From an uncultured bacterium (GTDB lineage Bacteria > Chlamydiota > Chlamydiia > Chlamydiales > SM23-39): 64,000 nucleotides of DNA. The stretch lies in contig CAZQNB010000003.1 in the NCBI GenBank assembly GCA_964594545.1, forward strand, positions 18,137 to 82,136, given 5' to 3'. Below the pieces are notes generated by a model. That model did no database searches. It was not told where the DNA came from and saw only the letters and a list, made by a program, of their open reading frames with translations. Each line of letters starts with the position of its first letter. The first letter of the stretch is position 1. The position numbers and the translations under genes were made by a program. This document shows, piece by piece, positions 13,824 to 24,642 of this stretch.

Positions 13824-15389
13824 CTAAATCCCCATTCCCTGGGGGTGTCGCATAGTGGCAATTGCAGGAGACTGTAAATCTCCCCTCTCACGAGTTCGGC
13901 GGTTCGAGTCCGCCCGCCCCCATTCTCCTGGACGATTCTTAAAGTCCAGTATCGTTAAGAACGGTTCTCTCACTGATACTGAGAGACTTCCATCCTTCAA
14001 TTGCAAGTTCTGAAATACTAAATCTAAAAGTTGTCGTTTTTCATCAGCTTCAGAACTCTCGAAAATTTCTCGAGCGCGAGCAGCAAGGTTCATCACGAGA
14101 TTTGCCGTGATGTAAAAGTTTTGGTCGGCCTTTTCATGTCGTCCCATTTGTTCAACAATTTCAGTCTGCCTAGACTTGTAGGTTGATACCCTCTCCAAGT
14201 ACATCTTTTCAGTGATCAGGCCATCGAGTTTGTCGTCGTAGATCTGATTTAATCGTTTCTGAATGCGATCCTGTTCTGATCGAAGGGCCTGGAGGCTTTC
14301 AGTATGAAAATGGGCCTCAGATTCATGGATTTCTTTGAGGTAGCGGGTGACGTCGGCGATTTGCTGTTCATTCAAAGCGATTTGATCAAAGTAGTTGGAA
14401 AGGTCAGCAATCAGGGGTTCTTCGCGCACATAGACCCGTTTGCAGTTGCCTTTGGCATTTGTGCAGCTGTAATAGATATAGCGCTTTTTCTTGATCTCAG
14501 GAGTTACAATGCAGCCACAATCGGCGCATGTAATCAATCCTCGTAACATGAATGGCTCGCTGACTGATTTATGGGGCTTTTTGTGATATCCTGCGGCGAC
14601 ATCTTGAACCTGTTGGAATAATGCCCGAGAAACAAGTGGTTGGTAATGGTGTTCGGTCAGGCCATATTTTGTTTTCATCATGCCGCAGTAGAATGGATTT
14701 TTCAAAATCTCATCGATGACAGACTTGGCGATTTTGTGCCCCTTTTTACTTCTAAATCCCATCTGTTCAGCCTCATGCGCTAATTTGAGCAATGAGTAGT
14801 TGCCAGTGCCGTATAGCTCAAAAATTTTTGTGATAAAAGGAGCGCGGTTAGGATCAGGGATGATCGTTTTTTCTCCATTATCACCTATCACATGCTTGTA
14901 CCCAAGTGGAGCAAGCCCGATCCAAATGCCATTTTTAGCAGCCTGTTCTTTGCTCCGTTTGACATTGTCACTCAGTTGAAGCACATAGTTCCTTGCGAAC
15001 ATGACACCCATATCCCAACGCATAAGATCGGCGCTATTGGATTTAAGATTGAGAACCAGATTCTCTCTCATAAAATGAATCTCGACCTTACCTTCTCGCC
15101 GAAAATCATCAAGGATCACAGATTCTTTAAAGCCACGTTGGATACGATCGACTGTATCAGCCACCAAAGCGATTGTCTCTCGTGATTTCCCAAGGTAATC
15201 GAGAATTTTTTGAAATTCCTTGCGAGTATCTTTCGTCGAGGACTCGGTGATTTTATGAATTTTATCGACGGTCAATCCCTTTCTTTCGGCATATTCTTTC
15301 AATCGTCGTTCCTGAGCGGGAATAGACTGCCCCTCTTCTTGTTCCTTACTCGATACTCTAGCTAATAAAATCGCTTTCATCGTTCTCAC
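13824..15389 (-). CDS. large serine recombinase (integrase)
   Basis: N-terminal resolvase catalytic domain MKAILLARVSSKEQ...IPAQ. Recombinase domain and Cys-rich zinc ribbon (CADCGC...YYSCTNAKGNCKR). C-terminal coiled coil. The last ~33 codons are the complement of tRNA-Tyr. Confidence 0.88.
   Translation of the reverse strand: MRTMKAILLARVSSKEQEEGQSIPAQERRLKEYAERKGLTVDKIHKITESSTKDTRKEFQKILDYLGKSRETIALVADTVDRIQRGFKESVILDDFRREGKVEIHFMRENLVLNLKSNSADLMRWDMGVMFARNYVLQLSDNVKRSKEQAAKNGIWIGLAPLGYKHVIGDNGEKTIIPDPNRAPFITKIFELYGTGNYSLLKLAHEAEQMGFRSKKGHKIAKSVIDEILKNPFYCGMMKTKYGLTEHHYQPLVSRALFQQVQDVAAGYHKKPHKSVSEPFMLRGLITCADCGCIVTPEIKKKRYIYYSCTNAKGNCKRVYVREEPLIADLSNYFDQIALNEQQIADVTRYLKEIHESEAHFHTESLQALRSEQDRIQKRLNQIYDDKLDGLITEKMYLERVSTYKSRQTEIVEQMGRHEKADQNFYITANLVMNLAARAREIFESSEADEKRQLLDLVFQNLQLKDGSLSVSVREPFLTILDFKNRPGEWGRADSNRRTRERGDLQSPAIATMRHPQGMGI
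13841..13922 (+). tRNA. tRNA-Tyr (GUA), long variable arm
   Basis: gggggtgtcgcatagtggcaattgcaggagaCTGTAAAtctcc + variable arm + ggcggttcgagtccgcccgccccca; anticodon GTA. Confidence 0.92.
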
Positions 15390-15460
15390 TTTTTTTGGGT
15401 AATTGTAGCATTTTGCCTCGATTCTCTTCAGGCAATTTCAGGCGCCCAAGGTTTATTTAG

Positions 15461-15520
15461 GTGAGATTTGTGAGAGTGTGATCTTGCCAGAAGGATATCT
15501 CACATTCTCACTTATCTCAC
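15461..15520. promoter_or_regulatory. cluster of six GTGAGA-type half-sites (three direct, three inverted) between the helicase gene 3' end and the recombinase start
   Basis: gtgagatttgtgagagtgtgat ... atctcacattctcacttatctcac, about 70 bp upstream of the recombinase ATG. Operator- or iteron-like; function not established. Confidence 0.4.
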
Positions 15521-15529
15521 TCGCCATAA

Positions 15530-22515: not shown

Positions 22516-23522
22516 ACTTTCTCTACGCCGTAGGTGATGTGAAAGTCATGATCTCCGCCAAGGCGGCGAGAGAGCCCTTGCTCTAAACGTACTTGCTCTA
22601 GTTCAGGGCAAGCAACTGCTACAAGATGAATTTTTTTTGTTCCCTGATCAAAGCAGTCTGCATGAGAAATCCGAAAAGAAAATTTCTGGCCTAGTTTAGC
22701 AATTTGTCCTGTCTTTTCGGTTGCGACAATGACGCTGATATGGCCGCCAGCCATCCCTTTTTTGAAATAAGGAGGAGGCTCAATTCCCATTTTACCACAG
22801 TATTTGAGAAGTGAAAAGATTTGCTCATCAGGGATGTCGAGATAGACAAACCCTTGATCATTGCGTCTTAAGGTCCCTTCAAGAAGAGGGGCTGTTTCAT
22901 ATTTCCATTGGAGGAGTTTGTATTGGGGAATGGCTTGCTTTAAATGGGCGGCTGCTAGAATGCCCTGACAGAAACCTTCAAAATAATCTCCGTTTTTAAA
23001 ATGTTTGCCCGAATTGTAGAGTTCTAAAATAATCTGGATGGTAGCGCAAAGGACTATAATTTCTATCGAACCGTACAGTATAGAAGCAAGGAATAGTCCA
23101 TCGAGCATTCCTTTAGAAAATGCATTACAGGCACTCCAAGCATCGCCTATACAAACGAACGTTTTCAATTCGTCCATATGGTTTACTAAATCGCTGAATG
23201 AGGTGACTGTATAGCTTAAAACAGGATGAAAAAAGAGAAAGCCAAAAGCGGCAGTAGTCAAACAAGAATGGAAAAATTGATATACAGCTTGGGTAATATC
23301 TTTACGTTCCACTGCTTTTAGGGTAGCTTTCATTTGTGTGATAACACGAGCTCCAGATAGGGCCATCGAAAGAGGCATACGGCATGAGCGGTGGAGAGCT
23401 AATAATGGAAGTGCTGCAATAGCTTTTTGAGGCCAGTTGCAGCTTGTACCATCTGTAATGGGCTGCGGAACATCTCGAGAGTAATCTCTTTGATAGAGAA
23501 TAGGGTAATTAATAGCAGCCAT
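22512..23522 (-). CDS. membrane protein with C-terminal putative 2H-phosphoesterase-like domain
   Basis: Hydrophobic segments TAAFGFLFFHPVLSYTVTSF and LFLASILYGSIEIIVLCATIQIIL. The C-terminal domain carries two H-h-(S/T)-h motifs (GGHISVIV and DFHITYG) about 69 aa apart. ATG at 23522 with GAGG upstream. Confidence 0.55.
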   Translation of the reverse strand: MAAINYPILYQRDYSRDVPQPITDGTSCNWPQKAIAALPLLALHRSCRMPLSMALSGARVITQMKATLKAVERKDITQAVYQFFHSCLTTAAFGFLFFHPVLSYTVTSFSDLVNHMDELKTFVCIGDAWSACNAFSKGMLDGLFLASILYGSIEIIVLCATIQIILELYNSGKHFKNGDYFEGFCQGILAAAHLKQAIPQYKLLQWKYETAPLLEGTLRRNDQGFVYLDIPDEQIFSLLKYCGKMGIEPPPYFKKGMAGGHISVIVATEKTGQIAKLGQKFSFRISHADCFDQGTKKIHLVAVACPELEQVRLEQGLSRRLGGDHDFHITYGVEKV

Positions 23523-23569
23523 ATTTTTTACCTCTGTTTTTTCAGATCTTGCAGGGTTAATTTCCTTTA

Positions 23570-24178
23570 TTACCAATCGTAGAGTTGATGATTAGCTTGG
23601 AAATCGCCTACTTCTAATACTTCGTTAATTTGAATCTCTAAGCAGTCTTCCTTACATGACACAACACCTTGTTGGACGAGGAAATTAGGAGAGGCGTAAG
23701 CTTTTCCCCATCCCGTTCTGCCAAAATATACGGTTTCTAATTGGACGGGTTGATCTGCAATAAATTCGAGTTTTGCCTTTTGTACAGGGCATGCGAGCCA
23801 ATCATTTTTATGAAATGCCTGCGGGAATTTTTGTTTAAATACATCCATATTTGTGCCGCCCCTCCAGATCACTGTAGTTTTATTGGCCGCCACATCGAAA
23901 TAAATTTCGGCATCTGTAGGTAGATGGTATTTAGCTATGAACTCTTGAGCACGTTTTTTTGCTTCAAACTCGTTTGCAACGACGGCATCTAGCATCTGCG
24001 TGTCGATTGCTTGCTTTAGCAAAGCAGTTTCAGCTTTTAACCTTCGATACGAAGATTTTATAGATGTTTCACTTGTAGTATTTTGTTGAGTGGTTGGATG
24101 AACCTGTGCTTCTAAAGAAAATTCTTGAACCTGTTCTGGACGAGAAAAATTAATATGACTGGTAGGGATAAATTCCAT
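23570..24178 (-). CDS. hypothetical protein (first gene of island cargo operon)
   Basis: 202-aa ORF from the ATG at 24178, preceded by AAGGAG. No recognisable domain. A TTGAAA-N17-CATATT promoter-like pair lies at 24232-24204 (minus). Confidence 0.55.
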   Translation of the reverse strand: MEFIPTSHINFSRPEQVQEFSLEAQVHPTTQQNTTSETSIKSSYRRLKAETALLKQAIDTQMLDAVVANEFEAKKRAQEFIAKYHLPTDAEIYFDVAANKTTVIWRGGTNMDVFKQKFPQAFHKNDWLACPVQKAKLEFIADQPVQLETVYFGRTGWGKAYASPNFLVQQGVVSCKEDCLEIQINEVLEVGDFQANHQLYDW

Positions 24179-24642
24179 AATTAACTCCTTTTTTTGCACT
24201 TTGAATATGCTGGTTTTGTTGTTTTATTTCAACTTTAAGTAATTATTAGTGATGGTTGTGTTATGAATAAATAAAAATTAACTAAATTTGTTGACTATAA
24301 TAATGTGTGCAGAAGGTTTAGTACTTAAATCTTAAGAGAATATGCATACACTCTCTTTTTTCTCTGCAAAGGAGTATTTAGAAATTATAGGAATAATTTT
24401 AAAAGTTCTTGCGAGTTTCTGCCAGTCAAAAGTTCTGAATGCGTCCAACCGCCCCCATTCGTCTCTTGGGCACTTTTCCGCTATCGCTCCTTGGGCGTAC
24501 GGAGTACAGCCCTTCGTCGCGATAGCGAAAAATTGCCTCAAGATCCGAACCAAGGACCCCTAATATCTCGTCGGTAAATTTCCGTGATCCTGACTCGGGG
24601 CGTACGGAGTACAGCCCGCCTCGTCACGATCACAAAAATTTC

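Follow-up and report, generated by a model that had tools for sequence, protein, structure and literature searches.

An integrative island with a phage terminase pair and no virion genes at a chlamydial tRNA-Tyr gene: a hint of undiscovered tailed phages in intracellular chlamydiae

The DNA described here is a stretch of 64,000 nt (the window) from an uncultured bacterium (GTDB lineage Bacteria; Chlamydiota; Chlamydiia; Chlamydiales; SM23-39), comprising positions 18,137-82,136 of the forward strand of contig CAZQNB010000003.1 (GCA_964594545.1). All coordinates are window positions, and L-numbers denote loci or contigs fetched for comparison. As judged from its sequence, window segment 13926-24460 is an intact integrative island of ~10.5 kb at the 3′ end of a tRNA-Tyr gene. 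The island encodes a large serine recombinase (LSR), a helicase and a complete pair of phage terminase subunits, TerS and TerL. Sequence comparison establishes its borders and the architecture of its attachment (att) sites, shows the site empty in relatives, and reveals recent transfer, genes that are intact and under selection, and a recurrent virion-less layout. Together these point to a mobile element, which may have the way of life of a phage satellite.

Gene content of the locus

The island and its borders have the following features (strand in parentheses).

13841-13922 (+): tRNA-Tyr(GTA); Rfam RF00005, 53.3 bits; placed at 13840-13923 by ARAGORN
13908-13950 (+): attL; 18-nt repeat at 13908-13925 with core CCGCCCCCATTC, followed by the attP right arm
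13824-15389 (-): LSR, 521 aa as integrated; Pfam, phrog_95
15461-15520 (no strand): GTGAGA hexamer cluster; five copies (two forward, three reverse) in 60 nt
15530-17293 (-): DUF927 P-loop helicase; Pfam DUF927 6e-76, phrog_1139 'DNA primase' 3e-83
17290-17640 (-): SpoVG-like small nucleic-acid-binding protein; Pfam SpoVG 1e-9, above cut-off
17641-17860 (no strand): divergent control region; two 22-nt direct repeats at 17761-17782 and 17813-17834
17861-19210 (+): orf449; belongs to the conserved core of the LSR island family
19290-19478 (+): orf62, small protein directly upstream of TerS; its one homologue, in L069, also precedes a TerS gene
19489-19926 (+): TerS, probably of P22 gp3 type; assigned by family profile and position directly upstream of TerL
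19904-21397 (+): TerL; phrog_2 5e-33, all ATPase and nuclease motifs present
21448-22515 (+): DUF1016/YhcG PD-(D/E)XK nuclease, cargo; Pfam YhcG_C 1.6e-62, DUF1016_N 1.3e-46
22512-24199 (-): two-gene leftward operon, cargo; orf209 (23570-24199), then orf354 (22512-23576)
24429-24460 (+): attR; attP left arm AAAGTTCTGAATGCGTCCAA and core CCGCCCCCATTC at 24449-24460
24461-24672 (+): native host flank, right half of attB; two hairpin repeats and a terminator-like hairpin

A tRNA-Thr gene is found at 13731-13805 (ARAGORN). The acceptor stem of tRNA-Tyr (GGGGGTG/CGCCCCC) and its discriminator A, read from the sequence, fit the Rfam placement.

The gene assignments made in the initial annotation of this DNA all hold in profile searches (Pfam and PHROGs; TerS by way of its family). 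A chlamydia-type host had also been proposed, and the genes flanking the island agree with this, as their products are up to 87% identical to proteins of Chlamydiota metagenome-assembled genomes (MAGs). Portal, capsid, tail and lysis genes had been reported as missing; indeed, no open reading frame (ORF) of the island matches such a family in Pfam or PHROGs. In the same searches, neither fragments of virion or lysis genes nor hallmark genes or recognisable remnants of a tailed prophage (portal, major capsid, tail, lysis) were found between attL and attR. Every ORF and both att sites of the island are intact.

Attachment sites and empty sites

The 3′ end of tRNA-Tyr (T-arm and acceptor strand) constitutes the left half of attB and attL. 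The 18-mer GTCCGCCCGCCCCCATTC at 13908-13925 has a second copy at 24443-24460 with two mismatches. This repeat, 16/18 identical, had been noticed from the start and proves to be specific; there are no further matches in the window at up to three mismatches, and none is expected (100 shuffles). The identical core of the two copies is the 12-mer CCGCCCCCATTC (13914-13925 and 24449-24460).

The attP right arm holds the dyad half-site TGGACGATTC (13929-13938), and the left arm holds the half-site GAATGCGTCCA (24437-24447). When attP is rebuilt by joining the ends of the island, it reads TTCTGAATGCGTCCA-ACCGCCCCCATTCTCC-TGGACGATTC. The half-sites GAATGCGTCCA and TGGACGATTC then form an imperfect dyad that flanks a 16-nt centre, around the shared core CCGCCCCC(ATTC). 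An imperfect dyad around a short shared core is the expected architecture of an LSR attP. attB and attP share a core of 12 nt in the window; in L075, a related element described below, the core has 8 nt. The predicted junction sequences are ...GTTCTGAATGCGTCCAACCGCCCCCATTCTCCTGGACGATTC... for attP and ...GGTTCGAGTCCGCCCGCCCCCATTCGTCTCTTGGGCAC... for attB.

In many chlamydial loci, LSR elements end in these two arms, with the right arm on the tRNA side and the left arm on the far side. The right arm is found with at most six mismatches in 34 positions in ~20 LSR loci of other chlamydiae. The left arm, with 0-5 mismatches, is at the far end of LSR elements in L075, L175, L178, L181, L182 and others. 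The arms give element sizes of 9.3 kb in L175 and 9.6 kb in L178. By these comparisons, the ends of the island are genuine LSR att sites. Position 24666 was considered as the true right end and rejected; 24460 is where the conserved left arm stops, and the native hairpin flank begins directly after it, at 24461.

Empty sites are found in L010 and L017. In both, tRNA-Tyr ends in CCGCCCCCATTC and is followed directly by GTCT(T/C)TTGGG and a long hairpin with GGGCGTACGGAGTACAGCCC. The same hairpin flank starts at window position 24461, and attB therefore consists of the left part of attL and the right part of attR. It should be pointed out that the empty site was established from the hairpin flank and not from genes, because there is no downstream gene synteny in relatives; none of the ORFs past 24.5 kb in the window has a counterpart within 10 kb of a relative's tRNA-Tyr. 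Of 55 related loci fetched with a flanking gene, nearly all lack the island, and a few hold related elements or LSR remnants instead.

The specific repeat, the att arms and the empty sites bear out the integrated element of ~10.5 kb that the initial annotation placed at tRNA-Tyr. Three findings had been named there as ones that would speak against an element, and none was made: empty sites exist (L010 and L017), the repeat is specific, and the profile hidden Markov model searches support the gene calls. One might still propose that there is no element, the repeat being a chance or native duplication and the genes ordinary chromosomal ones, as base composition is little different from that of the flanks (G+C 0.41-0.46 in the island and 0.39-0.47 outside). 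However, chance matches to the repeat are not expected, the att arms are conserved at both ends in many genomes, and relatives show the site empty and mostly lack the block. This proposal can practically be set aside.

The large serine recombinase

The LSR has the three domains Resolvase (PF00239, 1.8e-14), Recombinase (PF07508, 4.4e-15) and Zn_ribbon_recom (PF13408, 7.4e-10), all above cut-off, and it matches the integrase family phrog_95 at 8e-75. The catalytic motif ARVSS, read from the translation, is at residues 10-14. Its best NCBIfam matches are the CcrB, CcrA and CcrC recombinases of the staphylococcal cassette chromosome (SCC), all below cut-off (CcrB, 91.7 bits vs 900).

The LSR reading frame crosses attL and the core, and its codons from ~489 on are the antisense strand of tRNA-Tyr. 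In a reconstructed circle the excised form of the ORF is different, with 530 aa and another tail. Thus attP lies inside the 3′ end of the LSR gene, and the C-terminal tail therefore changes on integration. The last ~33 residues of the integrated form are encoded antisense to tRNA-Tyr (13824-13925); the different tail of the excised form has ~42 residues. This change of tail could affect directionality. Integration and excision catalysed by the LSR are predicted at these sites.

Not all recombinases of this type share the target. In a subgroup of LSR loci (L061 2731-2758, L187 2978-3005, L195, L198, L204, L223 and L224) the same left arm AAAGTTCTGAATGCGTC is accompanied by a different core, TCTCCACCTCC, and therefore by another target site. 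In L202 the LSR is found directly beside tRNA-Met.

Replication, control and cargo genes

The DUF927 protein is presumed to be a replication initiator and helicase; it resembles SCC Cch and phage primase-helicases. Its Walker A motif, read from the translation, is GGSSTGKT, and its best NCBIfam match is SCC Cch1 (6e-11, 41.6 bits vs a cut-off of 700). The GTGAGA cluster sits between the helicase stop and the LSR start. It had been pointed out in the initial annotation and is real, with five copies in 15461-15520 compared with 23 on both strands of the entire window. The cluster may represent a replication origin or an operator.

The SpoVG-like gene opens the leftward operon and is conserved in the LSR island family, with homologues beside the helicase in L175-L201 that are 51-80% identical. 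In the divergent control region a sigma-70-like promoter, recognised by consensus match only, faces orf449. Homologues of orf449 that are 21-44% identical have the same position in L175, L176, L178, L182, L187 and L190. The protein has no match in Pfam, PHROGs, PADLOC or NCBIfam. It has only five homologues, and its AlphaFold2 model (mean predicted local distance difference test score 55; predicted template modelling score 0.32) gave nothing below E = 0.1 in a Foldseek search of the PDB. There is no significant family match for orf62 in profile searches (Pfam, PHROGs).

The DUF1016 nuclease matches PADLOC PDC-S02 (5.7e-150) and is a candidate for anti-phage defence, a kind of cargo that phage satellites typically carry (PMC10085698). 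The C-terminal part of orf354 has a weak likeness to a 2H phosphoesterase, with a score just under the Pfam cut-off (2H-SAK, 7e-6). No further matches for orf209 and orf354 were found in PHROGs, PADLOC or NCBIfam.

The terminase pair

TerS alone falls below the cut-off of Pfam GP3_package (PF16677; 4.7e-6, 27.2 bits vs 29.4). Nine of the 11 aligned members of its family match this profile, the best at 7e-10, and TerS is directly upstream of TerL in every case, usually overlapping it. Searches of PDB sequences with the single TerS sequence and with the profile gave no match.

TerL is 45-48% identical over ~94% of its length to annotated TerL proteins of more than 100 isolated tailed phages, and in the PDB it has a weak match to the T4 gp17 ATPase domain (2e-4). 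The motifs ARQLG(V/I)ST, LH(I/V)SE, ESTAEG, WDLG.ND, PHDA and SHGADAF are conserved in an alignment with phage homologues, including homologues in true phage contigs where they lie beside portal genes (L100, L111, L115). The possibility of a degenerate Walker A motif (GVST, without lysine) was considered and rejected; bona fide phage homologues have the same motif. The ratio of non-synonymous to synonymous substitution rates (dN/dS) of TerL is 0.055 relative to L056, which represents strong purifying selection. In comparisons with more distant copies, synonymous sites are saturated and 13-31% of non-synonymous sites differ. By these measures the terminase of the island is genuine, functional-looking and under selection.

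Recent transfer and two parent families

The same element is carried by L075, a locus of a chlamydial MAG, at its own tRNA-Tyr. The DNA identity with the window is 92% over 13731-16363, the LSR proteins are 96% identical, and the right end of L075 matches window 24422-24456. The flanks of L075 are another matter, with a PP-loop ATPase and a transporter that show 66% and 57% protein identity, respectively, to their counterparts in the window. The high identity of the elements relative to that of the flank proteins indicates that transfer was recent, and the island thus appears to have moved lately between distant chlamydiae. L075 has an internal deletion that removes the equivalent of 16364-20836, and its cargo differs.

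The relatives of the island fall into two families. Family A is defined by the LSR, and comprises more than 50 loci with LSRs that are 57-97% identical, many at tRNA-Tyr; one complete chromosome holds three of these LSRs. The core of family A consists of the LSR, a ~190-aa protein (absent from the island), a helicase, the SpoVG-like protein and a divergently transcribed orf449-like gene. The helicase varies by copy and is DUF927, RepA-like AAA_25 or D5-type. Cargo includes a type II restriction-modification system with Vsr and a PD-(D/E)XK nuclease in L175, and a type I system in L190. Within family A, terminase genes are found in the window element and L075 only. Phage structural genes are not found in any copy.

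Family B is defined by TerL. TerS-TerL pairs that are 56-80% identical are found in at least 20 chlamydial MAG loci, and these adjoin tRNA genes (Met, Phe, Lys, Tyr) in all five loci checked. Beside TerS-TerL there is a tyrosine integrase and a DnaB-like, D5 or DUF927 helicase, and the pair always lies between replication genes and cargo. The cargo includes type I restriction-modification with Fic, Schlafen/AlbA_2 ATPases, a CoiA-like nuclease and a large polyvalent protein, as well as acetyltransferase, ABC-transporter, nucleotidyltransferase and resistance-like genes. Two elements of this family are bounded by tRNA repeats of 42-45 nt and have sizes of 14.8 and 17.3 kb. Virion genes were not found in any family B element. 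TerS-TerL elements are also present on complete chlamydial chromosomes, among them CAWHVD010000001.1, CAVOJR010000001.1 and OY969795.1.

In some elements and viral contigs that carry TerS-TerL (L072 12677-17116, L099 13157-18031, L098 6864-11513) the pair is followed by a ~350-aa protein and a 'polyvalent' LPD38 protein of 1,480-1,620 aa. LPD38-type polyvalent proteins are usually delivered together with mobile DNA.

The island of the window is therefore a mosaic, a family A backbone that has acquired the TerS-TerL module of family B. As the backbone family otherwise has no terminase, a satellite reading of the island hangs on the TerS-TerL module alone.

These families also bear on the origin of the island. 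The initial annotation had suggested either a satellite or a heavily deleted prophage. The satellite layout stands, unproven as to function, whereas the second possibility has lost ground. It would mean that a tailed prophage at tRNA-Tyr lost its portal, capsid, tail and lysis genes and is now immobile. The order of integrase, replication genes, TerS and TerL is that of the left part of many temperate phage genomes, L075 shows that large internal deletions occur, and scars of older elements are nearby. Yet at least 20 loci, whose integrases and helicases differ, have the same compact, virion-less layout, purifying selection acts on TerL (dN/dS ~0.055), and the ends and genes of the island are intact; it is for these reasons that decay is unlikely. 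In addition, there is no virion or lysis fragment between attL and attR, no structural gene in any copy of the backbone family, and the 92% identical copy in a distant host speaks for recent mobility.

Older insertions beside the island

The native flank contains two copies of a hairpin of ~95-105 nt, with the apex GGGCGTACGGAGTACAGCCC at 24493 and 24598, and a terminator-like hairpin at 24657-24672. The fold of the hairpin has a z-score of -6.3, and the repeats have no Rfam family. The same hairpin directly follows tRNA-Tyr in L010, L017, L004 and L015. It is therefore a conserved structured element attached to the tRNA operon and native to the tRNA-Tyr locus.

One further feature lies outside the intact island.

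24666-24730 (+): scar of an older LSR element; attP right arm and last LSR codons

The scar is an 80% identical repeat of 13916-13980. The older element seems to have inserted into the terminator hairpin GGGGGCAAGCCCCCATTC, a mimic of the tRNA acceptor end. L015 has the same layout of tRNA-Tyr, hairpin and scar.

A gene for a CPBP-type intramembrane protease is found at 24898-25557, and window 24811-25573 has 91% DNA identity to the metagenome contigs L255 and L256. In these contigs the protease gene lies ~245 nt inward from a junction where attP left arm, core and right arm meet, and therefore looks like cargo of an LSR element. Repeated insertions thus probably built the tRNA-Tyr island, which would reach further right than the intact element.

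Arrays of scars are also found elsewhere. Two to three attP left arms, 1.3-3 kb apart and without a recombinase, are present in L013 (3836-8269), L253 (1627-6876), L257 (3021-5216) and L181 (2045-3924). These arrays sit downstream of tRNA-Tyr or on metagenome contigs, and two of them are intact attP-like junctions between tandem remnants. Such islands would thus seem to grow by repeated insertion and decay.

Nested long palindromes at 25567-25628 and 25642-25818, with arms of up to ~85 nt that are ~90% complementary, lie between the protease gene and a NagZ-like gene. Related palindromes are present beside tRNA-Tyr and elsewhere in L014, and in L221, which suggests a repeat of this chlamydial clade that resembles miniature inverted-repeat transposable elements. 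At the other side of the island, a very long ORF with internal repeats at 3774-7676 (+) has multiple overlapping matches to repeats in L012 and L006 and probably encodes a repetitive surface or effector protein.

Search for a helper phage

To our knowledge, only small Microviridae phages are well characterised in Chlamydiae. No paper was found in the literature that links Chlamydiae with phage satellites or tailed phages. Phage-derived genes have been described on two chlamydial plasmids (Köstlbacher et al., PMC7846284). Among PLSDB plasmids, no chlamydial one matches TerL, so that the 'phage group' terminase of Köstlbacher et al. seems to be another gene.

Among bona fide phages the nearest is L100, an IMG/VR contig of 37,262 bp with a P22-like portal, whose TerS and TerL are 52% and 59% identical to those of the window. 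Its TerS-TerL pair belongs to the clade of the chlamydial elements and is ~3.9 kb upstream of the portal gene, with an HNH/HTH gene between. In a large protein database the L100 portal has 778 homologues, many on contigs of 36-38 kb, and none of these gave a host. Phages of this size with such a portal abound in metagenomes. L258, a contig of 66 kb, encodes a portal 79% identical to that of L100 and a TerL of another clade that is only 36% identical; all genes within reach on this contig are phage genes. Thus, terminase modules of the clade to which that of L100 belongs are exchanged among phages with P22-type portals. When all proteins of L100, L111 and L115 were compared with chlamydial loci by tblastn, essentially only TerS and TerL were found, with no structural-gene homologue; two other small ORFs gave short, weak matches.

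A satellite-like island and its alternatives

The best reading, unproven and given a probability of about one-half, is that of a satellite-like, self-replicating island that packages itself into the capsids of a helper phage. As sequence comparison supports, attP x attB recombination by the LSR put the island into the tRNA-Tyr 3′ end, and the displaced tRNA end is replaced by one that the island supplies. The DUF927 Cch-like helicase would copy the excised circle, with the GTGAGA cluster as the probable origin. TerS would recognise a pac site on the island, and TerS and TerL would cut island concatemers and pump them into procapsids of a co-infecting tailed phage with a compatible portal. The island would then be a satellite with its own complete terminase and without capsid genes, and the DUF1016 nuclease would protect the host. 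With respect to its origin, the LSR/helicase/SpoVG/orf449 backbone, which is common in environmental chlamydiae, would have acquired the TerS-TerL of tyrosine-integrase elements. All of this would imply a tailed-phage partner.

Several observations weigh against packaging by a helper. No tailed phage or prophage was found in chlamydial contigs, and chlamydial TerL and LSR loci have no portal or capsid homologue at a distance of up to 10 kb. Among 185,579 species genomes, relatives of the L100 portal were found on two contigs only, labelled Parcubacteria and Bacteroidales. Neither an exact nor a degenerate attP junction has a match in IMG/VR viral contigs. In metagenome contigs there are five matches to an attP-like junction, none circular and none with terminal repeats; they are tandem junctions or scars in arrays (L253, L254, L257) or lie beside a cargo gene (L255, L256). 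Packaged island DNA was not found in this sequence-based follow-up. With respect to gene content, neither a recombination directionality factor nor a capsid-size-redirection gene was recognised among the island genes. No ORF matches AlpA, MerR or Stl, the regulators of phage-inducible chromosomal islands (PICIs), in Pfam, PHROGs or NCBIfam, and the sole regulator candidates, SpoVG-like protein and orf62, are unrelated to these families. A genome of 10.5 kb would fill about one-quarter of a head of P22 size, and half of the closest copy, L075, is deleted. Furthermore, ~35 related LSR-backbone elements have no TerS-TerL, and the backbone therefore spreads without a terminase. In the window, TerS-TerL occupies the position where family A relatives carry cargo.

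The last points are also what an SCC-like or tycheposon-like cargo island would show, one that replicates itself and has captured TerS-TerL as cargo. Transfer would then be via generalised transduction, vesicles or DNA uptake inside a protist host, and TerS-TerL might serve as a defence that interferes with the packaging of phages, or might not take part in transfer at all. This main alternative is possible, although on the doubtful side. It is consistent with Ccr and Cch1 as the best NCBIfam matches, with the restriction-modification genes or nucleases that the ~35 elements without terminase carry, and with the place of TerS-TerL right after orf449. The arrays of att scars with short cargo blocks in L013, L253 and L257 look like accretion, and no helper phage, circle or packaged DNA was found. 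However, the intact state and strong purifying selection of TerS-TerL do not favour a captured passenger. In family B the pair is a conserved core between replication genes and variable cargo, which better fits a function for the element itself. In addition, we know of no defence system that is made of a complete TerS-TerL pair.

Packaging by a helper can be extended to a broader and more tentative proposal, which is plausible. Environmental chlamydiae may have as yet unseen tailed phages with P22-type portals, and these phages would be parasitised by two families of tRNA-integrated, capsid-less satellites with TerS and TerL.

If this is correct, an obligate intracellular phylum would have its first phage satellites, and these would be of a new type, of which the window provides an intact and recently transferred example built on an SCC-like serine-recombinase/Cch-helicase backbone. 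Satellites with TerS and TerL that have no capsid genes would also represent a new hijacking strategy in satellite biology. Gene movement between strictly intracellular chlamydiae is poorly understood. A complete tailed-phage terminase under selection, on an element that moved recently, is a testable lead to tailed phages and phage-mediated transfer in this phylum, and the element has dozens of relatives across Parachlamydiales-type genomes. Of interest also is that an LSR with defined attP and attB in tRNA-Tyr builds defence islands by repeated insertion. The LSR/att system could become a genetic tool for organisms that are hard to manipulate.

Comparison with known systems

The PICIs, among them the pathogenicity islands of Staphylococcus aureus, and the PICI-like tycheposons of Prochlorococcus share with the island a site-specific integrase, integration in or next to a tRNA gene, a primase/helicase of their own, the phage-type packaging gene TerS, accessory or defence cargo and the absence of tail and lysis genes. 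They also share a size of 10-17 kb and tandem arrays with partial tRNA copies. Cargo-carrying and packaging-carrying variants have integration and replication modules in common (PMC10085698; bioRxiv 10.1101/2020.12.28.424599), and the same is seen in the chlamydial elements. The island differs in the addition of a full TerL and in its integrase, a large serine recombinase being rare in those systems. It also resides in an obligate intracellular chlamydia, for which no tailed phage is known.

Five core components are used to define PICIs (de Sousa et al. 2023, PMC10085698). Of these, the integrase is present in the form of a serine recombinase, whereas the usual type is tyrosine. The primase-replicase is represented by the DUF927 protein (phrog_1139), and packaging by TerS and TerL, although no helper was found for mobilisation. 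The regulator is missing, as described above. No ORF matches a capsid-morphogenesis gene, the model of orf449 being too poor to judge. The four layout features of tycheposons (a site-specific integrase at a tRNA, replication genes of their own, partial tRNAs in tandem arrays, and cargo-carrying and PICI-like variants that share modules) are all seen here; this likeness is one of layout.

The capsid-forming PICIs have both TerS and TerL, as does the island, so that packaging would be independent of a helper terminase (PMC10085698). They also encode a major capsid protein, portal, protease, head-tail adaptor and connector, and HNH, none of which is present in the island.

SCC and SCCmec have in common with the island a large serine recombinase, a DUF927 Cch-type helicase, a variable cargo region and site-specific integration at the 3′ end of a conserved gene that is left intact. 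The best NCBIfam matches of both proteins are to this system, yet they are far below the cut-offs (92 bits vs 900 and 42 vs 700). The target is tRNA-Tyr and not rlmH, there is one recombinase gene and not a ccrAB pair, and SCC has no terminase genes. With neither equivalog-level Ccr and Cch proteins nor the rlmH target, the island is not a member of SCC.

Phage P4 resembles the island in size (~11 kb), integrase, primase-helicase-type replication protein and tRNA integration, and dependence on helper capsids would be a common lifestyle. The P4 genes psu, sid, delta, epsilon and alpA have no PHROG or Pfam match in the island. P4 uses the helper terminase and a cos site, whereas the island encodes a P22-type terminase of its own.

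Within the Chlamydiae, the closest published parallel is the island PnaK_GI2 of Protochlamydia naegleriophila, which lies downstream of tRNA-Thr and contains a terminase gene (Bertelli et al. 2016, PMC5010888). It was noted in passing there, without att sites, a family or a satellite reading. The likeness, which is by description only, suggests that PnaK_GI2 is probably a member of the same element population.

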